Of a stretch of 64,000 nucleotides of DNA, positions 2,324-25,686 are shown one piece after another. Source of the DNA: Neodothiora populina (Eukaryota); the NCBI RefSeq assembly GCF_041146345.1, contig NW_027191417.1:248001-312000 (forward strand), in the 5' to 3' direction. The position numbers were made by a program, and so were the translations under genes. The notes beneath the pieces are model-generated. The model ran no database searches. It had not been told where the DNA came from and saw only the letters and a program-made list of their open reading frames with translations. Each line of letters opens with the position of its first letter. Positions within the stretch are counted from its first letter, which is position 1.

Positions 2324-4486
2324 CCCACTCGTTGTCCTTCTGCTTCAATAAATGAAGTATAGATATCATGAAGGCTGGCTGGGGATATAGAAAAGGGAAA
2401 AATTGGCTTCGGCAGGTATATATATCATGGCTAACATGGGATCTTGGATTGGACGAGACGATGGCATCATGATGATTATATCTATCATCTTTACGACCGA
2501 GCTGGGCCCCGGGAGGGATGGGCTATCTGTGGGATTGTTTCTGTTTACACCGCGCTTGCTATTTACTTGCTTGCTTGGCTTTCTTCGTTCTCCTCTGCCA
2601 TGTCTCGTTCAGGGATTGGTCGACTGACTTACTTGTATGACTTTTTTTTCCTCTTGCGAAGGCGTTTTCGCAAAGGAGGGGAGGAGGGCCGTTATCCACT
2701 GCTTGGTGGTGGGAACCTCATCTATCAGCAAACCCAACCTGCTGCTGCTGCTGCTGCTCATGTGTCGAGACAGACCTGGACATCGTCGGTGTTTTATGTA
2801 CCTTTTTTGCTGTTGATAGAAATACTGAAGTTGAGACTTTTTCTTGCATCTGTGATGAATGATTTGAGAATCATTCGCGTATGCAATGTGTCGCTTCTTA
2901 CTGTAATGCTATGCTCTATGGATTGAGTCTGTGGTCTGAGCACATACTTAGCGACAAATACTTCGATCGCCCAGAAATTCGTCTTATTGTCCATCGACAC
3001 TCCAGTCCATGCTTCAGTTGTGAAGTCCCAACATGGCACTGAATCACATGTCCAGAGATGCCTTACTGCAGATAGGGGTAATTATTGTACAGTAACCCTA
3101 CAGTACTGTAGTTGCTTGCTTGCTTGCTTTATCCAGTACAAGTAAAGCAAGCGAGAAGCCAAGGCTGAGCTGCTGCTTAAGAAAAGGGGCGGCCAATGCA
3201 CGATCATGCTTGGCCGTGCGCGCGCGCGCGCGAAAGAGGTCCCTTATCGGTCGGTACAGTAGGTCGATCTACTGTAATTACTCCTTATAGGCGCGTCTAT
3301 GGTTGTTCCTGCGCGTTTCTTACTCGGAGTCGACTAGGCTACTCGTCGCCGCAGGCCTCTTTTGTTCATGGAAGCAGATTTGCGCTATCTCCTTTCTTTC
3401 GTGCGCCTCTCGGCTGGGATGCCGATGTAGATGTGGCGTAGTACAGTGGCACTCTATGTCGTGTAATGGTTGGGAGATGTGGAAAAGTTACCTGCTGTAC
3501 TTCGAGTTGGGACTCGTCTTGGCGTTCTAGTGCGCCTGTACTTGTACCTGCAGGAGCGAAGTGGACCGCAGATCAAGGGTTGTAGAAGTACCTTACGACC
3601 AAGTGATCAAAGACTCAGACGCATTGAGGTGGTTTACTTATTTATGAGCACATCACAGCCTCTCAAGGTTCTTATCACGATTGCGTTACCGAATGACTCG
3701 TAGACTCTATAAACTTCTCACTGCTCGACCAGTCGCTGTCTTGCTGCAAAGTGTATCTCTTCCACCATTAGACTTTCGCCTCAGGGCCTGCCGCCCCAGT
3801 GTCCAGCACGCGCGCTAAAAGGCTAATCCATCGGTGAGATTTCGATAACCAACGGCTACATGGGTGATCTTGCACGTAAAGATGCATGACCGTTTCCACG
3901 ACCACAGCTGAGACGAGCTGAACTGGACAACGTCTTTCGAGGTCACTCTTTTACCTCCTTCAGTCGAGGTGCTTGCTACAAGTCTCTGGGTCGCCATCGT
4001 TGGATATGGTGGTTCTGGGGTTGGGACTATTGGCGGCCTACGAGCGAACCTTTCATGGGGCCTCTTCTGTCGTCTCGTCGAGTAAGTGACTGGCTACCTT
4101 ACTTCCTGTGTGAGCGATTGGTGGTCGATCCACTGTACAGTACTGTAGTTCTACCGTCTTGTGGAAACTCCTCTTGGGACTGCGGGACATCTTACAGTAG
4201 TAGGTAATATTCTGGCCCGAAACGGTAATGTGAGAACCTGGTTGTCCTTTTTCCCCCCTTTGCGATGGATTGACAGCTACTACTGTATGTGGCACCGAAA
4301 AGACGGTACAACAGCCACCAACCCTTATACCTATCTTAGGGGGTTCAGCAGAATCCAGCCAATACAATTGTCTGCCATGGGTTTGGCGTCCACACAGGTA
4401 GGTCTTGTGGGAAGCTCTCTTTTCTTTCTTGTCATCTTGTGTCGCATCTGTTCCTCTTTCCCATTCTTGTATAGGCTGTCGTCGCG

Positions 4487-5930
4487 ATGGCTTCTACCAC
4501 TTCCATTCCTTTAGTGTTTCGTACGACGACTTTCAAGATCTTAATACCTTTGGTGCTGCTGGCGGTGTCTTCTTATTTCTTCTGGCCTATACCCTCGTCT
4601 GCAACATCAACGTTACCGACGCCACACTTGGACGTGAGCAAATGGGGATTATCCAGCTCTAGCACCTGGGTCTACAAGTTCCCTAGAGATGCGAATCACC
4701 ATGGTCTCTCTGCAGAACAATGCGATGCGGCATTTCCAGGATTCTATGGAGATATTGAGTCTGCGGTAGAGTCGCGGAAGAACAATCCAGTCACTTTGAA
4801 TGAAATTAAGATTCATGATGACAAGTGCCTCGTACGGGTCCTGATCTACGATTCCGAGGTATGTCAAATCTGGCGCGATGTTTTCCGTAAAGTACGACTA
4901 AACCATTCCAAGATCTTCATTATCCAAGGAAAGACAAACAAATATTGCTGGATCGGACAATGGCATGAGCGAACGACTGGACTTTTACATTCCATCAACC
5001 GCGCAGTGATGAGCGTGCCATACGGAACCATCCCGAATATCGAGTTCGTGTTAGACTTCGACGATGACCCGCAGAGACCCATCGACATCATGCGCGGTCA
5101 TGGTTCAAACAAGTCGACAGTCTGGGGACTCACACGCCGGGAGAACCAGCGTCACATCTGGCTCATCCCAGATTACGCATACTGGGCATGGCCATCCGCG
5201 CGCGTCGCCAGCCACCAACAAGTACGCCGCAAGATGGCAGACGCCAACGCCAAATTCCCCTGGGCGAAGAAGATATCCAAAGTCGTCTGGCGCGGCACCA
5301 CACATCTGAACCCCGGCATCCGATGGCCGCTTGTGAAGCTGGCAAAGGAAAAGGAATGGGGCGACGTCAAGGTCTGCGACATCTACCAGCCAAAGACAAA
5401 GCAATTCTGCATCACACAGGACCAACATTGCCAGTACAAATTTCCTGTGCACACGGAAGGATACACGTACTCTGGCCGCCTGAAGTACCTCCAACTATGC
5501 AACAGCGCGCCCGTGGTGCACAAGCTCAAATGGCTCGAGCACCACCACGGCGTCATGCGACCAAACGGCACGAACCAGAACTTCATCCAGGTGGAGCGCA
5601 ACTGGACAGATCTAGAATCAAAGGTAAGCAGACCCTGAAACACCCCACGACCCAGCACTAACCCCCCCAACCCAGATCCTCTACTATCAAGAACACGAAG
5701 AAGAAGCGCAGCGCATAGCGCAAAACAACTACGAAACCTTCTACGAGCGCTACCTGACGCCCGCCGCGACATCATGCTACTGGCGCAAGGTCTTCCACGG
5801 CTGGTCGCGCGTCCAAGGCTTCGAGCCCCAGCTGTATGTCAAGAACGAGACGGACGGCAGGATGATGCTGCGCGGCACGTCTTTTGAACAGTATGTTGTT
5901 AACGCTACTAAGGCTTGGCCTGCTGCTTGA
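4487..5930 (+). CDS. Glycosyltransferase family 90 (CAP10/POGLUT-like), type II membrane protein
   Basis: N-terminal TM segment (ILIPLVLLAVSSYFFW). Motifs WLIPDYAYWAWP, KVVWRG, HCQYKFPVHTEGYTYSGRLKYL and RYLTPAATSCYWRK. Introns about 4859-4912 (GTATGT..AAG) and about 5623-5675 (GTAAGC..CTAAC..CAG); stop TGA 5928-5930. Confidence 0.85.
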
Positions 5931-6246: not shown

Positions 6247-7758
6247 TCACAAACACCAATCGACCTCAATAACACTATCAATATCACTCCTGCCACCCGG
6301 CCGAGTGGGATCCGGAATCTCGGCGCGCTTGACATAAAACTGCCTGACGCAGCCCTGGGCGTCTCCCTCAGCATGCACGAAGCGCCAACTAATCTTTTCG
6401 ATGCCAGCCTTCAGCGCGGGCCTCAACTCGCCCAGACTATCGTGAAACTGCCACCCGTCGCCCGGCATCGAACTGCCCGGATACGGGTACATTGTGCCTT
6501 CTACAAGGTCCAAGTTCGGGAGGCCCTTGGGGTATCGCGCGATGCTGAACCCGTTGGTGAAGACGACTTCCTCGGCGTGCGAAGTGTAGCGTTGCAGAAA
6601 GGCGTCTGCGCCCGCGACGTCGCTGACGAGGTGAGCGGTCGGCACAGGGAACTTGTGCCAGCTCTTCCAGTGGTGGATGGTCAGTAGCGGGTCCGGCCCG
6701 GACTCGTACCATCCTGACATGTCGCCGAACATGTCTAGCTGGTTGAGACCGGGGAGTTGGGTCAGTTGCACGGTCGGGGAGGTGATTCTGCGCACGCACG
6801 CGCGCCACATGGCGTCGCCCCAGCCGGTCTTGAGAGCGAGGCATTCGGGCGTGTGAGAGGCTACTTGTGCGAGCAGGGGGAGTGATATGAAGATGCCGGC
6901 GCCACCCCATGCTTTGAGTCCCTCTGTTGCGATCCCGATATGGCGCTCGGACAGCGAGCCCAGGTACCAGTTTTTGGTAGGGTCGAAGGCGGAGAGAGCA
7001 TTGTGTAGGCGAGCGAGGGAGACGAAGAAGGTGTCGTCGTCTATGATGCCGAACCACTTGGTCTTGGGCCCGCGGTTGTCGTACATGGCCTTGCCTAGAC
7101 CGAAGTTGCTTTTCGACTCTGACTGCTCCGAGTAAGATGGTGGCAAGATTGTGACGTTGACGTTGAAGGCCACGATTGTGTCTAGTGTAGAGTGAAGCGC
7201 TGTGTCATTCGGGGTGTCTCGAAGCAATACCAGGAGTCGTGCGTTGGTGTTCGAGAGCCATCTCGCCATTTGCGGTAGACTGTCATCAAGTCGGTGCAGT
7301 GAGGTGGCCACTCCAAGCATGATCGTCTCCGATCCGGCAGCTGATATCGAAGCGCTGCGCGGTACAGGTAATGAAACCGTACTTCCGCAACTTGGGAATA
7401 GTGTCCGATTAACATCGCCTTTGTCATTGCTTCCTGCTGTTTCTATGTATGAGGGCTCTGTGAGGAGAGGCCATGATGCATTCAGGGCAGACTGTCGGAC
7501 TACTCCTCGCGAAGGCTTAGCCACTACACAGTGCCGACGATACTCGAACGTCTTCGATGTGATATTCAGGCGTTCTAAGACTTCCATGTCATACGAGGGA
7601 CTATTACTGGATTTCTTGCCCGTCCATTGTGACCGGACCATATCCGTGTAGTCCGGCGTACGGAAGAAAAAGAACGATGCAATAAGCAATAGGATTACTC
7701 CCGCCGTCCAAGCAAGACGATCATATCGCCTAGCTGGTGTTTTCATATAGATAGACAT
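6247..7758 (-). CDS. Glycosyltransferase family 31 (Fringe-like/DUF604)
   Basis: Intronless 503-aa ORF with N-terminal TM, KWFGIIDDDTFF (DxD motif), WYLGSLSE, AWGGAGIFIS and LTIHHWKSW. Confidence 0.85.
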   Translation of the reverse strand: MSIYMKTPARRYDRLAWTAGVILLLIASFFFFRTPDYTDMVRSQWTGKKSSNSPSYDMEVLERLNITSKTFEYRRHCVVAKPSRGVVRQSALNASWPLLTEPSYIETAGSNDKGDVNRTLFPSCGSTVSLPVPRSASISAAGSETIMLGVATSLHRLDDSLPQMARWLSNTNARLLVLLRDTPNDTALHSTLDTIVAFNVNVTILPPSYSEQSESKSNFGLGKAMYDNRGPKTKWFGIIDDDTFFVSLARLHNALSAFDPTKNWYLGSLSERHIGIATEGLKAWGGAGIFISLPLLAQVASHTPECLALKTGWGDAMWRACVRRITSPTVQLTQLPGLNQLDMFGDMSGWYESGPDPLLTIHHWKSWHKFPVPTAHLVSDVAGADAFLQRYTSHAEEVVFTNGFSIARYPKGLPNLDLVEGTMYPYPGSSMPGDGWQFHDSLGELRPALKAGIEKISWRFVHAEGDAQGCVRQFYVKRAEIPDPTRPGGRSDIDSVIEVDWCL

Positions 7759-8606
7759 GACAGGCGCTCACGTCTTCGACTCGTGAAATCGTGTACGATG
7801 TCAAGACCTCGAAAGTGTCCCTTGGATGTAGTTTGTAAATCAACCAGACAGACATGATCGAATAGACCTTATCAACTCCCATGATTAGTGGCGCTTGATC
7901 GCCTGCCGGGCAGAAAACGTTCACATCGTTTCAGGAGCTGATGCGTTGCTGCTGCCGCAAGTCAACGTTGTTGATAGTCGAGTCGTGTAGAGATCTGGGG
8001 TGGCGGTATAGTCAAAGTATCCTTTAAACCTGAGTAATTCAGTAACATACTGGGGAAAGTCGGATGATCCTTTCTTGTTGTGGTATTGATAGACCAGCAC
8101 TATCGTTCGTTTTATGATCTTGGTTAGCTTGGATATGCAGGGACAACGTCTTCCCCTTTTGCATTCTGTGATCAAGCCGCGCTCCACCAGCAGTCCAATA
8201 CCTTGCACTGTACCGCATGTGCTCTGCAGACCCCTATCTCCTTTGCTTCAATCGCAAATGTCCAGTCATTCTAGAGCGTAGACTTGAACTACACTACACC
8301 TACAAGTGACACATGTATACAACACTACTATCTGTAGTGACGGGCACGAGACAATGCGCTGCCTCTGTATAGAAATGATAATGAATGTATTTGATCTGCA
8401 TGTGCAGTAGGTGTCTTCTCAGAGCTTAGAGATCTGTGTTATTTTCTATCAGGAGGCGTTACTTGTGATTTAGATCTGGATGGCTGTACTACACGCTAGC
8501 AGTGGCCATGGATAATATAATATTAGTGGCGCAGAGAGCTGCTGAACAAGTTTTGACATCGCTGACAAGCCATCCGTGAGGCCTTAGTGCCTGCTTCGCA
8601 GCTTTC

Positions 8607-10290: not shown

Positions 10291-12801
10291 ATGTCCTCAC
10301 TATCCCACCATCAAAGTGTCTTTCACATTACAAAGCCCAGCGTGCCTAATGATGGCGCCCACTCGGGTGCGAGAAAACGAAATCGCCAAGCTGTATCATG
10401 TGCAGCATGTAGAGCAAGGAAGTCAGTATCACCTTTGAATCACTATTCGATGTGAGGCACTACTAACGAAATCGAAGGCTGAAATGTGACCGACAACTAC
10501 CATGTACTGGATGTGCGAAGAGAGGAGACTCGGACTCTTGCATATATGCCAATGACAATACTAGTGATCGTAGCCACCGTGATGGAACCCCTCGAACCTC
10601 AGAGGCACAGTTTCGCCTGCAAAGGCTCGAGTCTATCGTCACTAGTCTCATGCAGATGCCTAGTGACAGTGGTAGACCTCAGAATGAGTGTAACGCCGAG
10701 GAGGCAGGTATGGAATGCGTGAACATGCCGCAGGTCATTTCTTCGGGAGGCCATCTCGACATGCGTGGATCAGAAAGCAACTATTTTGGGAACACTCATT
10801 GGACGACTATACTGGAGAATGTAGGTGTACACGAATGCTCGTAGTCATGATCAGGCATCGTTGACAATATCAAGATTCGGGAGATCCAGGGTGTTCTTGA
10901 AACGACCTCGGATGACAATGACCAGATAGACTCGTCGACTCCGATAGACGGCGCAGATATTGTCTTTGGATCACTGCAACCGCTTACGATGAATGAGGCC
11001 TGCAAATCGTTGCCGCCGAGATCTACCGTCGACAGGATGCTGGCAGTGTATTTCAATGCCAAACAGATACAATTTTTAGGTCGGCTGATGTACCAAGTCT
11101 CTTGTTCTATACGTTACTGACCTAGACCAGGACTGACACATACTGGTAAATTCTTGCGTGAGGTAAATTCATCTTATTATCCTCTTCTACATGACAAGGA
11201 CACAGAAAACTGATAGTAATACATAGTACGAATCCTTCTGGGCCGACGCATCTTCTGTATCACTCCTCTGGATGTCAATGCTCTTTTCGATACTCTTCAT
11301 TTCTTCGAGAATCGAGCAGGCAAAGACGTTCGACGGCTCAGTCTACACTAACGAGATATCTCAAAACATCTACTTCACTCGCGCTCGACAAGCACTGATC
11401 GCTGGAGAGTACCAAAAGGGAAAACCTTACTCGGTTGAGTCGGTGACTATCTATGGCATGTGCAAATACACGCAGTGCGACGACCCCGACTCGGATGTAT
11501 GGATGATCATGGGTGTTGCTACACGCCTTGCTGTGAAGATGGGATACCATCGGGACCCCCGTCATCTGGGTCAAGTCTCTGCGTTCGAAGGAGAGATGAG
11601 GAGGCGAGTTTTCTTCTATGTACAGACTTTTGATCTAATTTTGTCTTTTTCTGCTGGACTCCCCGCGATGATCCGTGAAGAAGAATGCGATGTCGACCCT
11701 CCGAGCAATCTTTGGGACTCTGACTTCGACGAAGACTGTGAGGTACTTCCACCATCGCGCCCGCCAACCGATCCTACACCCATGCTCTATTATTGTACCA
11801 AGGATCGACTACTTAGAGTCTTTCGAAGTGTATTTCGCCTGGCGATGTCCTTTGAAAGCCATGCCTATGCAGATATACTCAAGCTCGACAAGGAACTTGA
11901 CGAGGTTCGCTCATCGATCCCACCCACACTACGACCGAAACCTCTGAGCTCTTCAATCGTTGATCCTCCTGATCTTATCGTTAACAGACGACATCTTGAG
12001 ACGATGTATCTGAAGGTCCTCTGCGTCCTACATCGTAAATACCTCACCCACGACAGGTCGAACCCCAACTTTCAGTATTCTCGCGACAGATGTACAAGTG
12101 CAGCACTGAGATTACTCGAATATCAAATGGAACTTCAGATCGCCTGTCGACCAGGAGGTCAACTCTACGAAGAAAGATGGATGCTGTCCAGCATCAATCA
12201 ACAGAATTTCCTCCTGGCGGCCATGATCATCTGTCTTGACTTTTATGAAGTTGCCAAATCCCCCGAATTCGCAAGCTCCGAGGAAAGAGCATCACAGTCC
12301 AAGAAACAAGAACTGTTGAAGCGTGCTTACGACATATGGGTTTCGTTTGGAGACCTCTCACGGGAAGCTCAACGAGCGGCCAAAGTCATTTCTGCTCTGC
12401 TGTCAAAAGTGCAACGGCCGGACATGGCTTTCACGCCATCAGCTTCGAGTCGCAGTAATCCGACATCGTTAGGCAGTATTTTATCGGAGCCTGGCTTGAC
12501 AAATGTCTCCATCGCCTTGATTTCCCCTGAAGATCTGATCCATGGCGAGTCTGCGTCGAATGATTCAGTGAGGGAACAAATGCACGCTAGTTTCGACTCA
12601 TTACAGGTAAACATGAGCTGTGTAAATCCACTAGATACGCTTTTCGATACCTCTGATAACTTCGATTGGGTAAGATCATCGTATAAAATATTGCATTCGC
12701 AAATACGAACCTGTATCACTAATGTGTTGTCTTGCTAGGCACTTCTTGATCAAGGTTTCTTCGATCGTCTTCAAAACGTCGATCAAAACTTTCAGCTCTG
12801 A
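10291..12801 (+). CDS. Zn(II)2Cys6 transcription factor with fungal-specific TF (middle homology) domain
   Basis: Spliced RKRNRQAVSCAACRARK|LKCDRQLPCTGCAKRGDSDSC zinc cluster, then MGYHRDP..FEGEMRRR motif. Several GT-AG introns; last exon ends at TGA 12799-12801. Confidence 0.88.
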
Positions 12802-13397: not shown

Positions 13398-14663
13398 TCA
13401 CTCGATTACTCTCACCGGATTATTCAGACCATGCTTGTTCGTCTTCGCTCTCCGAGAAGTCTGCATTTTCGGGAGCTTTGGCAGCTCAGGACCCCAGAGA
13501 CTGTACTCCCTCTGCTTTTCACACTCGCACATTTCTCTGGCTTTGGTCGTGCCGTCCACTGCTGCACTTCCTTCGCGGCAGCTCTCGCAACATGTCGGGT
13601 CTTTCTCCTCGCAATCCGCGCATACAACTAGAACAAGATGACACCTCGATGTACGACACTTGCTCAACCTATCTTCGGCTTTGCCACAGACATGGCATTG
13701 AGAGACAGGATCATGCGAAGCCTCGTCAAGACTCATTGCTCCTCGAGCGTCGAAAACGTAGTTCTTGCCCTTGAAAAGCGAATCATCTGCAGTCATTCGT
13801 CCAGCGGCTATTTCCTCGTCCACCCAATCTAGGTATGCTGCTATACCACCACGCAGTGTGCATATCTGGCGATTGACACCGACCGTAGCATCGTCGCGCT
13901 CAGCCATCCATCTTGTGGCTTTTTCGCATCTGATACCACCGGTGCAGTACGTCAGTATCTGTCTCTGCGACTCCCCCTCACCAGTCGGTGTCGGCGAGTC
14001 CCGTAAGTAAGCCGCCTTATAGTAACGAGGAAACTGCGAGAAGCGGCGAATCTGTGGCCGTACCGCCGGACTCCTCGTCCTAGGATCCACAAAGTAACCG
14101 ATCCTGCTTTCGTAGTGATTCCGTAGATCCAGCAGCTCGATGTTTTCTTCATAACAGCGACGATGGAACTCGGCCGGCGCCAGTTCCGCGACGACTTGCC
14201 ACGACAAGGGCGCATAGTTCGTGATACCCAAAGGTGTAATCTCAGCGCAAACACGCACAGAAGCATCCGTGGCTGGGTTGAAGACACAAGCGCAACCCGG
14301 CGACGGTTTAAAGAATGCCTTGCGCTCTTCTTCTGACGAAAGCGCCAATCTCGCAAACGACCAATGCGTCGTGCACGCAGAGATGTATTCCTCGATCGCG
14401 AAATCCGTGCCGCCGACAGTCACATTGAAGCCTTCAACCGCCACCCTGATCTTGCCCGTGATCTCGAGCCTCGAGGTAATGGCTCTGTGCCATGAGGCTA
14501 ATTCTTCTACTTGCTCGGATGTGGGCGTGGGGATTGCGGGCTGGTTCGCAAAGTAGCGGTAGAATAGAAGAACTTTGCCGCCGCTGCCTTGCTCGCGCGC
14601 TGGACATGTGCATTCGTATGATATCGGGTCTGACGTCCCTTGTTCAAGACGTCGAGTTGTCAT
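13398..14663 (-). CDS. Rhodanese-domain protein of the TrhO/YceA (UPF0176)/TSTD2 family
   Basis: LLFYRY, GKIRVAVEGFNVTVGG, LDLRNHYESRIGYF, active-site loop YCTGGIRCEK, FKGKNYVFDAR and a Cys-rich C-terminal domain; intronless, 421 aa. Confidence 0.85.
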   Translation of the reverse strand: MTTRRLEQGTSDPISYECTCPAREQGSGGKVLLFYRYFANQPAIPTPTSEQVEELASWHRAITSRLEITGKIRVAVEGFNVTVGGTDFAIEEYISACTTHWSFARLALSSEEERKAFFKPSPGCACVFNPATDASVRVCAEITPLGITNYAPLSWQVVAELAPAEFHRRCYEENIELLDLRNHYESRIGYFVDPRTRSPAVRPQIRRFSQFPRYYKAAYLRDSPTPTGEGESQRQILTYCTGGIRCEKATRWMAERDDATVGVNRQICTLRGGIAAYLDWVDEEIAAGRMTADDSLFKGKNYVFDARGAMSLDEASHDPVSQCHVCGKAEDRLSKCRTSRCHLVLVVCADCEEKDPTCCESCREGSAAVDGTTKAREMCECEKQREYSLWGPELPKLPKMQTSRRAKTNKHGLNNPVRVIE

Positions 14664-15333
14664 TTTGCAGCTGGACTGATATCAGGAATACATGGGTCTG
14701 AGTGCACTCTTTAATACCATTGTTGTCCAACTCATAAGTGTGTACCATTAGCGAAGGCAGAGTATGGGCAATAAATCAAAATGACATTTTCCTTGGCGGA
14801 TTGGTCAACACGCACCAGTCGAGAGGAGGAATTGATGCGTTTTGACCAACACCAGATAATCAATAAAGACATGTGGAGAATATTAATGGGTTTCGTAATG
14901 GTAAAAAATACTTGAGTCCCATGCATCAGAGCCAGCGTGGAAAAAGTCACTCGTAAAGTGCTATTGGCATCATATCATGCTGGTCCTATCTACAAAGGAT
15001 TTTCCATCATAAGGTATCTACAGTCGTACTCTTCTTGTTAGTCAAGAATCAATATGCTACGTGGTCCTCCGTAACACTTTTTGCCAACGCCAGATGGAAC
15101 ACGAATGCTCATGCAATATTGGGGTATCCAATCCTGATCATGATTTCCGGACTCACCCTACCATCAAGTATTGTCCCTTTCCATAAAGACACTTCTTAGC
15201 GTGCGCTGCCCAATGAACGGAACCAAATGTTCGGTAAAAGACATAAGGGGTATCCATGAAAACGCCGTCATAACCCCAGAACGCCTTGCGAGAAAATTGA
15301 AACAAATGCAAAAAAGAAAGTGGGAATATCTTG

Positions 15334-18093
15334 TTATGTGGGAGAATTTTGCGGGACGCTGCTGTCGCCGCTTCCACCCCGCTCCCTCCACTCCGTCTTG
15401 ATGCCGCCTGTCGATCTTTTCTTGCGGAGGCTGAATAGACTCATCGCTCTGCTGGCGATGCTGTTTCTAGAGTCGTTGTCCGATCGCGGCTCCTCTTCTT
15501 GGCCCGCTATTTTACTAGGGTCCTTCAGAGGGTCTACGAGAGCACGCGTTCGAGGCCCAAGATTCAAAAGGATAGGGTACAGAGCACCGCCAGCGAATCC
15601 AACCACAGCAACGACGATCGTATACTGGACACCTCTCGAGCGGCTGACGGCATACGCTATAGCAGGTAGTATTGCGCCGCCAGAAATGGCAGCGGTAATG
15701 ACAGCACTAGCGTCTTTGGTATGTCGGCCCATGCCACGTAAGGTCTGAGCGAAGATGAGAGAAAATATAGGGCCTTCGAAGCAGAATGTCATGGTGAGCA
15801 TAATGGATGCCTTTCTTCCTTGAAGGCTCATGGCTAAGGCAGAAAAGACAATCAGACCAAGAAAGTAGAATGCCAACAAATGTCGTGGCTTGAAGAGTAA
15901 CAGCAGCCCAGCAGTGAGGAATCGGGCGGCAGCAAAGACACTGTGGTCAACAGCAACTGCATAGACGTCATCTACTTCAGGGTCCAGTACACCAAGGTAC
16001 GAAGAAAGACCTGCTGCGATCACCTCTTGAGCGCCGACATAGCACCACATGGCAAAAGTACCGATGGCGAGCGTGACCCAGATGATGCGGACGCGGCCGC
16101 CGAGGACCGTGGCATAGTTGGCACGGTCCATACGCTCGCTGCGCTCTTCCAGCTCCTCATCTGTGCCTTCTGGAAGGGGCACGTAGAAGAATGCGATGGC
16201 TAAAGCCACGGTGAAGAGGGCAATCCCGGTGTAAGCCCATTGAGTATTGACAAGAGATCCTGCGTCGGTCTCTTTGAACAGCGCCTTCCGCGCAATCAGA
16301 GGAGCAATTACTGTTCCTATTGCTTGGAAGCCCTGAGAGAGACTCAAACGGATCTCGGCATACTCTTGCGGGCCACACATAGCGATGAATGGATTCGCAG
16401 AGATCTCCAAGGTTGAGAGACCCAAGCCAACAAGCACGTTGACTACAATGAATGTAGGGAACGACACTAATACTGCCGAGGGCCAGAAGATTAGAATGCC
16501 ACATGCATATATGGCCAAGCCAACTGTGTAGCAGGCGGCGAAACCGTAGTGTTTCAGTACTAGGCGGCCGAAGGTCAGAGGACCAATAAAGTATCCGGCG
16601 TAATATGCACTGTGTATGCTGACCGTCTGCCCAGCCGACATGTGAGAGACCTTCTGAAACTGGGCATTCAGTACATCCAGGAGGCCATATTCGAATCCCC
16701 AGATGAAGAACAGGATGGTGACCATGGTGATTGGGAATATGGATTCGCGATTTGTCATCTGCACAAAACTTTTCTTGCCCTTCACATTGACGAAATCAAA
16801 AAAGTTTTGTGAGCGATGACTCGTGTTTCGAGACGAATTGGTCAAGGCGGTTTGCGAACGCTGGAGCTGGTCCGGGAATTCGTTCATGTCTGGTGTCGTC
16901 AGGAAGTCCATCATTCCCATGGGTCCATCGTCTTCCTCCTCCGTTGCGTGCCCATGCGTCGTTTGCTGCTCCAGCCAGGCATGCTCCGGCACAGATGGCA
17001 CCCGATGCATCTGGGATTGAAAAGTAACACCTTGGTCGATGGATGAATGTTTCTCGGTGACGTCGCCTTCGTCGCGCAGCATCTTGGGTAAGTATCGCGA
17101 CACCAGAGGTTTCAATGCGGGCACACATGCGCACATAATGCCCACGTTGACCTCAATGGCCGACCACATGAAGGAGAAAGAGGAGTACCAAGAAAAGTCG
17201 GTGGCATCCTCGACCTTACTGCCATATGTCTGGACTTCCGAAGTGATTTCCTTCAGTCGGTAGGTTGAAGCTGATTGCAGGTAAGCGATCCTGATGATAT
17301 CAACCACGGCAACGAAAACACCAAAGCCAAAAGTCACGACAACGATAATCTTCTGTTTCCTCGGCAGTCGCATAGAAGTCAAGATTGGCATCGGAATGAA
17401 CAATATTGCCAGGTCGGTGATGATATTGAGTGGCGCTGAAGCCAAGTAAATTGTCACAATGTCAGTACACTTGGCATGCGCTGGCGTCGGGAAGTCGTAT
17501 GCAGCATGAACCGGATCACACTGGAGGATGGTAACCAATGTGAGGGCAAGGCCACCTGCGTTGACTACGAATAGCGCGGCTATTGTGGCCCATCGGAACG
17601 TCCGGTTTGTCTTTGACAGTGTAAGATAAAATGCTAATATGGACGTCTTCTCAGCCATTAGTGCTGGATTCTGCACGGTATGTTAGCAATCACTTCATCA
17701 GTGGCTCTGTTAAGAGACTGATCGTACATATAGCACACTGAAGGCGTATTGACTCTTCAGTAGCGCATTTTGCCACGATGATGGAACGTCGTCTTCGTGA
17801 CGGCCTAGTCCATTAAAGGTGCCGTAGCAGATTGCAAAGGACATGCCAAAAGCAAGCATCTTGTGCAGGTGTCAGCATGCATATTTTCAGCGGTTCGGTA
17901 ACCCGGATATTATACATACCCATGCCACCATCATAAAATAATCATCAAGCATGAACTTCTTAACGATCCCCGCGCGCGAGATGCAGCGCAAGGTCACGAA
18001 GGTGGTCGAGAGGCATGTCATCACAACCACCACGGTGAATACGGTGGTGCTGCGCGAATCATATTGACCGCTGTCTATTGTGCGTTTGTCCAT
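15334..18093 (-). CDS. Fusion of a PTH11-like (fungal rhodopsin-domain) 7-TM protein and a FucP/GluP-type MFS sugar permease, about 880 aa
   Basis: Exons 18093-17920, 17859-17728 and 17670-15334. N-half has LDDYFMMVAW, GLGRH, KTSILAFYL, NIITDLAILFIPMP and WSAIEVNVGIMCACVPAL. C-half has ILFFIWGFEYGLLDVLN, GLSTLEISANPFI, RLSLSQGFQAIG, WCYVGAQE and TAAISGGAILP. The junction lies inside one uninterrupted exon. Confidence 0.88.
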
Positions 18094-21516: not shown

Positions 21517-22643
21517 CTTGTATCTTAGTGTGTAGGCTTTCGTACTGCTTAGAACCAATTTGATTCCAGTCTGTCTGTTGGCTCACTCCATCCGATTCTC
21601 ATCTCGCCACAGCAGCAGCAACAGACCCACAATAGACCAGCAGCAACCGCTATGATATACATCAACTACACACCAACACAACTATTCGATACGGCGTCCA
21701 AGTATCCCAATGACAGTCCTAAGACACAAGATATAACCAAAGCAATAAAATTAGAGAAACAGACAGGGTCGCCCTCGGCGTCGCACATCGGAGCACTCCG
21801 CGAAACTTACCTACGCACCACCTACACACGTGACGGAATAAGGCTGGTAGGAAGGGATAAACAGTCGAGTAGACAAATGAGGACCTGATATACACTTCAT
21901 CTAGTCCTTCTTTGCTTCTGATTCTGATTCTCGGCCGGCTGAGTAGGTACTTTCTGTAAAGGTCAAGACAACTGTAGAGCGACAACTACCCGTGCCATTG
22001 ACACACCTCGGTTATAGCTTGTTATCCCGACGATTCGACTCCATACTAGGCTCGTATTAGACAGTGCATGTTGAATGGGTAGCTAGTTTTGCTTTCTTCG
22101 ACACAAACTCGCTCTCGGTCGGGGGTCGAAAGATCGAAGGGAAATATACCTAGGAACCTCATGGGCAAATACAGGATACACGTGTGGCAGAGGCAGGGGG
22201 GGATCATCCACCGAGAGCAGGCGATGCTTGTACAAGTGCGAGTGGGACAACAAGAAAAGAGGTAAGTGAAAAGTGTAGTAGTAGTGGTAGTAGTAGTACT
22301 TCTTATAATTTACCGACCGATTGTCAAACCTTCCACGCGGAACAACAATAACCCCCCTTTCTGCATCCGCCTTCCAACTTCGCATCTTGTTGAAAAACAA
22401 ACTTCGCTCCCCTCTGCTTTCTGATGTTCCTCATTCTGCTGCATCTCTCGGCGGGATTCCATAGCTCCTGTTCCATGTCGCTTCTTCTTCTATTCCCGCT
22501 TCTCCGTCCCAACGTTAAAAGAGAGAGAGACAGAAGAGTGTAAAATAAAAGTAAAAAAAGCCAATGCAAAAACACAGATGTACAACAACGTCTTCTTCTC
22601 CTCCTGTGATCCCCCAAAACCCTTGTCTTTGCGATCGTTCTGT

Positions 22644-25686
<3,043 letters not shown>

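Follow-up and report, generated by a model that had tools for sequence, protein, structure and literature searches.

Human LYCHOS (GPR155) has been described as 'a human hybrid of a plant-like PIN transporter and a GPCR' (G protein-coupled receptor; PMC11525196) and has been called a 'transceptor' (bioRxiv 10.1101/2024.09.24.614577). In yeast, the transporter folds of Gap1 and Pho84 serve nutrient sensing (PMC3824880), and the same review describes the roles of Asp46 and Glu135 in the Escherichia coli L-fucose:H+ symporter FucP; these two residues and Asn162 are critical for the active transport of fucose (PMC3417520). On the receptor side, the PTH11-like proteins are the largest receptor-like family of fungi, which is almost wholly orphan, with unknown ligands (PMC13308352). 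Here, we describe a gene on the minus strand of a 64,000-nt stretch of the Neodothiora populina genome (the window; assembly GCF_041146345.1, contig NW_027191417.1, positions 248,001 to 312,000), which joins a PTH11-like seven-transmembrane (7TM) domain to a complete FucP-type transporter of the major facilitator superfamily (MFS) in a single chain. This hybrid is a real, old and, within the literature searched, unstudied receptor-transporter fusion.

With Pth11 and the PTH11-like proteins (fungal GPCR class XIV), the hybrid shares a full Fung_rhodopsin domain (PF20684), seven helices with a predicted outside N-terminus and a distribution centred on Pezizomycotina, whereas it lacks a CFEM domain, carries a complete C-terminal MFS and belongs to a conserved subclade of its own, outside the fast-evolving expansions of the family. 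FucP (3O7Q/3O7P) and the FHS family (fucP, gluP and NagP models) provide the best match in sequence and fold to the second half, with twelve helices and the residue pair D434/E524 at the Asp46 and Glu135 sites; the differences are an identity of about 24%, scores below the equivalog cut-offs, Gln at the Asn162 site, apparently Phe at the Tyr365 site and some 400 additional N-terminal residues. The likeness to LYCHOS is an analogy of architecture, that is, a transporter and a GPCR-like 7TM in one polypeptide, with no homology implied: LYCHOS is a lysosomal cholesterol sensor with a PIN-like instead of an MFS transporter fold and 17 instead of about 19 transmembrane (TM) helices. Furthermore, its domain order is the reverse, with the transporter first, and it carries a DEP domain. 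Gap1, Pho84 and Snf3/Rgt2, the transporter-like glucose sensors of yeast, signal via the transporter fold and tails, and none of them has a covalently attached 7TM receptor domain. Finally, yeast Ste2 (class D GPCR, 7AD3) is the closest solved fold to the 7TM half in helix arrangement only, at 9% identity and with no relation at the sequence level.

The gene occupies positions 15334..18093 of the window, and its two halves are joined within one exon. A stop-free frame of 782 codons (15334..17682, minus strand, as for all parts of the gene) contains exon 3 (15337..17670, 778 codons, residues 103-880), which encodes TM3-TM7, the linker, the whole MFS and the C-terminal tail and is closed by the stop codon at 15334..15336. 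Thus, the end of the 7TM domain, the linker and the MFS share a single stop-free exon, as an earlier note made from the sequence of the window had claimed. Exon 1 (17920..18093, 58 codons, residues 1-58, with the ATG at 18093..18091) encodes a short extracellular N-terminus, TM1 and the DDYF motif where TM2 begins, while exon 2 (17728..17859, 44 codons, residues 59-102) encodes TM2 and the extracellular GLGRH loop and runs into TM3; scanned alone, exon 2 yields a weak PF20684 match (expectation value E 0.23). Both introns are of the canonical fungal type in donor, branch-like site and acceptor: intron 1 (17860..17919) comprises 60 nt with GTATGT, CTGAC and AAG, and intron 2 (17671..17727) 57 nt with GTACGA, GCTAAC and CAG. 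The exon junctions fall between DDYxMxLAW and xLAFG and between SVLY and NPALMA, and the splice sites are supported because these motifs align without gaps to 58 homologues. Joined, the exons give 880 aa that are letter-for-letter identical to NCBI 'hypothetical protein AAFC00_004500 [Neodothiora populina]' (P0002), for which UniRef uses the name 'Rhodopsin domain-containing protein'. The coordinates and the length of about 880 aa in the earlier note were therefore exact, and all motifs that it quoted are present (DDYF, GLGRH, KTSILAFY, WSAIEVNVGIMCACVP, LLDVLN and LEISANP). In addition, two contigs of 161 and 170 nt from a sequencing run that is probably of DNA fall within exon 3; they contain no joints and are silent on expression and splicing. 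Judged by its sequence, the locus is shown to hold one expressed-type gene model for a predicted 19-helix membrane protein.

The fusion is widely conserved. A homologue search with exon 3 returned 1738 matches at E≤0.001 among 8000 scored candidates, and both Pfam domains were present in each of the best 120 of these, which originate from many Dothideomycetes, including Delphinella, Aureobasidium, Hortaea, Cercospora, Pseudocercospora, Zasmidium, Elsinoe and several Pleosporales. When the MFS half alone served as query (length ≤842 aa), 101 of the 120 best matches contained both domains. The 19 MFS-only matches comprise 13 with the family linker motif upstream (three of these beginning with the end of TM7), two with the pre-MFS motif, three that start inside the MFS and one fragment that lacks a start Met. 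Searched exhaustively with HMMER, a set of 1.84 billion representatives gave 317 matches at E≤1e-30. By profiles of the two halves, the best 150 of these comprised 82 with both halves, 50 with the MFS only and 18 with the 7TM only; among those of at least 750 aa, 51 of 53 had both halves. Short matches to the N-terminal half numbered 168 at E≤0.001 among 1009 candidates, and of 13 that were aligned, 11 continue into the pre-MFS motif or MFS TM1 and two end in the linker. Apparent 'split' forms, with the halves as separate genes, were considered and rejected, as those examined are almost all truncated gene calls, and no convincing stand-alone orthologue of either half was found inside the fused clades among these forms. 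True stand-alone MFS relatives occur in Mycena (470-510 aa); a stand-alone MFS of 515 aa from Drechslerella could itself be a truncated model.

Beyond Dothideomycetes, divergent named fused members with 30-45% identity were found in three further classes: Leotiomycetes (Pseudogymnoascus, Tricladium varicosporioides and Halenospora), Sordariomycetes (Chaetomium, Lasiosphaeria, Berkeleyomyces, Niveomyces and Cladobotryum) and Eurotiomycetes (Penicillium canescens, P. ucsense, P. diatomitis and Talaromyces atroroseus). The possibility raised in the earlier note that the fusion is unique to this assembly is thus contradicted by its presence in 120 of 120 listed homologues and in four classes. Across 58 homologues, mean identity to the protein in the window is 0.60 in the 7TM, 0.52 in the MFS, 0.34 in the linker and 0.23 in the C-terminal tail; this pattern indicates that both halves are under purifying selection, the 7TM being kept slightly better than the MFS.

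The history of the fusion was followed in separate trees of the two halves. In a quick, unrooted maximum-likelihood tree of the MFS half (71 rows, 59 fused and 12 chosen as apparently stand-alone), a large clade A, which includes the protein in the window, is set apart from a clade B of 16 rows with a support of 100 (starred) in the SH-like approximate likelihood ratio test (SH-aLRT). Six unnamed 'stand-alone' metagenome rows nest in fused clades, five of them in clade B, as expected of truncated calls. Four Mycena rows, one from Drechslerella, P0368 and a fused Tremellales entry form a group of seven with a support of 92 (not starred). The tree of the 7TM half contains 43 rows, 37 of the 59 fused proteins (Dothideomycetes thinned) and six without an MFS match, and clade B again forms one side of a branch (support 93). 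Since clade B is recovered in both half-trees, the halves have evolved together. Moreover, Tricladium varicosporioides has one member in clade A and one in clade B, and therefore the two clades are old paralogues. Taken from these sequences, the fusion is shown to be old, as it is present in at least four classes of Pezizomycotina and at least two paralogous clades. A single fusion event early in Pezizomycotina, together with the survival of stand-alone MFS relatives in Agaricomycetes, would explain this most simply.

Clade B, with members from Leotio-, Sordario- and Eurotiomycetes (P0232, P0239, P0246, P0249, P0252, P0255, P0260, P0262, P0273, P0275 and P0282), has Asn, Gly, Thr or Phe at the Asp46-equivalent position, and every clade-B row in the 59-sequence alignment is without Asp there. 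Its members may be uniporters or non-transporting sensors. The fused Tremellales entry, P0244, is a partial protein of 854 aa that carries the NCBI label Tremellales sp. (basidiomycete yeast), although the PTH11-like family is said not to occur outside Pezizomycotina; it may have arisen by vertical descent or gene transfer, or be a contaminant. In the 7TM tree, five of the six rows without an MFS match group with this protein (99, starred). The tails of three such rows were inspected: in P0320 and P0343, the linker and pre-MFS motifs are present and the sequence ends at MFS TM1, and P0351 has an unrelated long tail. This group appears to be a third fused lineage in which introns were mis-called, rather than a set of free 7TM genes.

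The 7TM Fung_rhodopsin/PTH11-like domain (residues 15-295, 17092..18051 with both introns included) is supported by Pfam, AlphaFold2 (AF2) and conservation. The PF20684 match covers the complete profile (1-237 of 237) over residues 35-294 with E 1.1e-60 and 205.6 bits, compared to a cut-off of 27. A Pfam search of the 880-aa protein for CFEM (PF05730) gave no match even at E≤1, and only 14 residues precede TM1. An N-terminal CFEM is a feature of Pth11 proper and not of every PTH11-like protein. Because a CFEM domain is lacking and the N-terminus is this short, the protein is, by its domain content, PTH11-like and not an orthologue of Pth11; the earlier note had likewise proposed a PTH11-like domain without CFEM and had named the lack of a rhodopsin-domain hit as grounds for abandoning it, and the complete profile match speaks clearly in its favour. 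In the AF2 model, seven helices within residues 15-284 are followed by a short C-terminal helix (286-295), and the half modelled alone reaches a mean pLDDT of 89.3 and a predicted TM-score (pTM) of 0.87. Two Cys residues in the outside loop between TM4 and TM5, Cys153 (17518..17520) and Cys170 (17467..17469), are invariant (59/59).

A comparison of this model with 48,161 PDB representatives using VIA-align ranked yeast Ste2 (7AD3_B) first, with Z 18.4, a root-mean-square deviation of 5.0 Å over 257 aligned residues and a distance of 2 Z units to the next row, although helical bundles can reach high Z scores from arrangement alone. Designed GPCR-like folds (16.4), the bitter-taste receptor TAS2R14 (15.8) and adiponectin receptor 2 (15.6) came next, and class A receptors were numerous at 13-14.5. 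The rows displayed by Foldseek were all GPCRs, all of them weak. The predicted fold is GPCR-like, a statement on fold only that says nothing on coupling or function. As a separate observation, an ESM Atlas search with residues 1-300 returned a 52-member cluster of proteins of about 1015 aa with CFEM, Fung_rhodopsin and the N and C domains of a GMC oxidoreductase; PTH11-like 7TM domains have therefore been joined to more than one kind of partner.

The FHS/FucP-type MFS domain spans residues 406-815 (15532..16761) and has twelve helices, which AF2 places within residues 409-806. Pfam MFS_1 (PF07690) matches residues 421-770 (E 1.6e-16), and the NCBIfam model fucP (TIGR00885) matches with E 3e-40 and 138.7 bits, at an equivalog cut-off of 280.4. 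NF007524 gives 119.8 bits against a cut-off of 427, and the gluP and NagP models score lower than fucP, with the MFS half far below their equivalog cut-offs. The only sequence relatives in the PDB are two E. coli FucP entries (best 3O7Q, E 1.9e-32), which Foldseek likewise ranks first against the full-length model (3o7p/3o7q, E 1.8e-11, target-normalised TM-score (TMt) 0.75-0.77, about 24% identity). By these matches, the half is an FHS-family MFS (fucose, glucose-galactose or GlcNAc), not a demonstrable fucose permease, and the complete FucP-type transporter proposed in the earlier note is borne out to this extent.

In the HMMER alignment to FucP, D434 (16675..16677, in LLDVLN) aligns to Asp46, E524 (16405..16407, in LEISANP) to Glu135, Q548 to Gln159 and Q551 (16324..16326) to Asn162; the equivalents of Asp46 and Glu135, the pair responsible for protonation and substrate coupling in FucP, are thus where the earlier note had seen them. 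Across 136 full-length fused proteins, Glu occupies the E524 site in 134, N528 is kept in 134 and Q548 in 130. In the four stand-alone Mycena relatives examined, the Asp46, Glu135 and Asn162 sites are occupied by D, E and Q, and since they share this Gln, it is older than the fusion. The Gln argues for a substrate or binding mode other than that of FucP, and together with the scores below the fucP equivalog cut-off it leaves the substrate 'fucose' without support.

A full-length AF2 run on the 59-sequence alignment gave a mean pLDDT of 81.1 and a pTM of 0.79, with 152 of 880 residues below pLDDT 50; residues 1-9, 309-399 and 829-880 are predicted to be disordered. In an N-out orientation, the inside loops hold the Lys/Arg residues (KKFM, MRLP and then RKQK, and the helix after TM7), while the four outside segments have three Asp/Glu each and are neutral or net acidic (Lys/Arg: three in the N-terminus, one in each of the three loops). 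Since seven helices with these loop charges leave the C-terminus inside, the linker is predicted to be cytoplasmic, which is the side required by the N-terminus of an MFS; the 7+12 helices and the cytoplasmic linker anticipated in the earlier note agree with the model. Furthermore, we estimated from the definition of the TM-score (d0 about 10 Å at this length, largest rigid body about 410 residues) that a pTM of no more than about 0.5 is expected if domains of about 410 and 285 residues are placed independently. Because a pTM of 0.79 needs a confident relative placement of both membrane domains, we infer that the 7TM is packed on the MFS as a fixed partner and does not dangle on the linker. 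The ESM Atlas model of the same protein has a pTM of 0.66.

The linker (residues 296-405, 16762..17091) is poorly conserved and comprises about 110 aa, so that its presence agrees with the earlier note and its length is somewhat below the 120 aa given there. Two conserved islands stand out in it. In the first, PMGMMDFLTTP (residues 352-362, 16891..16923), M353, M355 and M356 are each kept in 40 of 59 sequences and replaced elsewhere by V, L, I or F. Several metagenome gene calls begin exactly at this island, and it could be the start, either a relic or an alternative one, of an isoform with the transporter only; as the replacements of Met are hydrophobic, the alignment favours a hydrophobic short (docking) motif over a start codon. 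The second island, FFDFVNV (residues 392-398, 16783..16803), contains F395, which is invariant (59/59). The cytoplasmic C-terminal tail (residues 816-880, 15337..15531) is poorly conserved as well.

As the 7TM is probably held in a fixed position on the MFS, we consider it most likely that the two halves form one unit, and with a probability of roughly 55% we favour, on the strength of the model, a coupled 7TM-MFS unit, that is, a built-in transporter-receptor hybrid or 'transceptor'. Since the Asp46/Glu135-equivalent pair is retained, the MFS module of the protein in the window would work as a proton-coupled sugar importer, whose substrate is probably not L-fucose specifically. The 7TM would read out the conformational or occupancy state of the transporter, or gate or target it. 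Within this coupled-unit reading, we put the chance of a G-protein or cyclic AMP (cAMP) output at perhaps one in three. A sugar transceptor in which uptake is coupled to cAMP or mitogen-activated protein kinase (MAPK) signalling, the functional reading of the earlier note, is plausible, the one suggestive feature being the architecture.

Several observations weigh against this coupled unit. The packing is deduced from one AF2 run and one pTM figure. Concerning the receptor half, Foldseek found no PDB match to the 7TM model at E≤0.001 (best E 4.8e-3), and the VIA-align ranking is subject to the caution on helical bundles given above. G-protein coupling is known for Pth11 itself and not for the subfamily of the hybrid, and the ligands of PTH11-like proteins are unknown (PMC13308352). 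Concerning the transporter half, the fucP equivalog cut-off is not reached, Gln stands at the Asn162 site in 130 of 136 fused proteins, and F738 appears at the Tyr365 site of FucP, in a weakly supported stretch of the alignment. Moreover, only 100 of these 136 proteins have D at the Asp46 site (18 have N, 5 A, 5 G, 3 E, 2 S, 2 F and 1 L), and therefore proton coupling through the TM1 Asp is dispensable for the conserved role of the family. Finally, none of the RNA runs checked covers the locus.

A possible alternative, to which we give distinctly less than even odds, is a transporter with a built-in accessory domain, in which the 7TM would serve structure, folding, lipid contact or targeting and endocytosis, with no signalling through G proteins or kinases. 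This is consistent with the rigid 19-helix body suggested by AF2, with database names that present members only as transporters and with the conserved short motifs in linker and tail, which are of the trafficking kind. A feature of G-protein interaction cannot be read from the sequence, and the fusion of Fung_rhodopsin to the unrelated GMC oxidoreductase would fit a general membrane scaffold. However, the 7TM is conserved more strongly than the transporter (0.60 vs 0.52), the invariant Cys pair and the GLGRH loop lie outside and go beyond the needs of a passive scaffold, and the nearest fold is that of a true fungal GPCR (Ste2). Furthermore, the G-protein/cAMP coupling of M. oryzae Pth11 is documented, the receptor signalling via MagB and cAMP (PMC13308352).

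It is considerably less probable that the MFS half has turned into a ligand-binding domain, in the manner of Snf3/Rgt2, and that the protein is a non-transporting sensor that reports sugar availability only, although this is less unlikely for clade B. The replacement of the Asp46 site in 36 of 136 members and throughout clade B (N, G, T or F), the position of the family below the fucP equivalog cut-off and the resemblance of the long disordered linker and tail to the signalling tails of sensors all point in this direction. The loss of Asp could equally yield a uniporter, however, and in the protein in the window D434 and E524 are both present; across the family, E524 (134), N528 (134) and Q548 (130 of 136) are kept as for a working binding and translocation site.

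That the gene model merges two neighbouring genes, or that the fusion is limited to one assembly, is very hard to maintain: RNA data for Neodothiora populina were not found and one-half-only database entries exist (19 of the 120 best MFS-half matches, and the short N-half matches), yet the junction lies inside a stop-free exon of 778 codons, independent assemblies show the same architecture in 120 of 120 listed homologues, 18 of the 19 MFS-only rows have the linker motif (13), the pre-MFS motif (2) or an MFS-internal start (3), the last being a fragment, and 11 of 13 short N-half matches extend as far as the pre-MFS motif or MFS TM1.

Searches of the full-text literature, subscription journals and supplements being outside their scope, found no publication in which a PTH11-like/MFS fusion is described or tested, and such a member is not mentioned in passages of a fungal GPCR classification preprint covering 1,357 species or of a 2026 review of fungal GPCRs (PMC13308352). 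Surveys that recognise GPCRs by their seven helices would probably miss a member with 19. The statement in the earlier note that there is no functional description of this architecture thus agrees with the outcome of these searches, while the architecture as such has already been catalogued automatically, in Pfam-domain pairs and in a 60-member ESM Atlas cluster labelled 'Fungal rhodopsin/Major Facilitator Superfamily domain-containing'. Individual members bear database names such as 'MFS monosaccharide transporter-like', 'L-fucose-proton symporter' and 'Rhodopsin domain-containing protein'.

As a conserved subfamily, mostly present in one or two copies and tied covalently to a sugar-type transporter, the hybrids offer a tractable entry point to the PTH11-like proteins, with orthologues in fungi that can be cultured, among them Aureobasidium pullulans, whose orthologue P0010 is 66% identical. 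Should the coupling proposed here be true, they would represent a second, independent transporter-GPCR hybrid beside human LYCHOS and would bear on carbon-source sensing by filamentous fungi. A more far-reaching proposal, which we regard as improbable, is that Fung_rhodopsin 7TM proteins are generally membrane partners of solute transporters, which they read or gate, and not classical ligand-binding GPCRs. The hybrid would then be a covalent, ancestral-style version and the fungal counterpart of LYCHOS, with clade B having moved towards pure sensing, and it would serve as a 'Rosetta stone' for the whole orphan PTH11-like family.

The neighbouring genes reveal no sugar-catabolic cluster and no other functional hint for the hybrid gene. 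Directly downstream of it lies a gene for a rhodanese protein that has a UPF0176 N-domain and a Rhodanese_C domain (13398..14681, minus strand), and a gene with a fungal-specific transcription factor domain (11227..12738, plus strand) and an NAD-binding gene are also found in the vicinity. Glycosyltransferase family 90 (GT90; 4475..5638, plus strand) and Fringe-like/DUF604 (6247..7767, minus strand) frames are more distant. About 4.5 kb upstream of the hybrid gene, two long frames with three WW domains and a HECT domain (22490..24954, minus strand) represent an Rsp5/Nedd4-type ubiquitin ligase gene, which is probably a coincidental neighbour.

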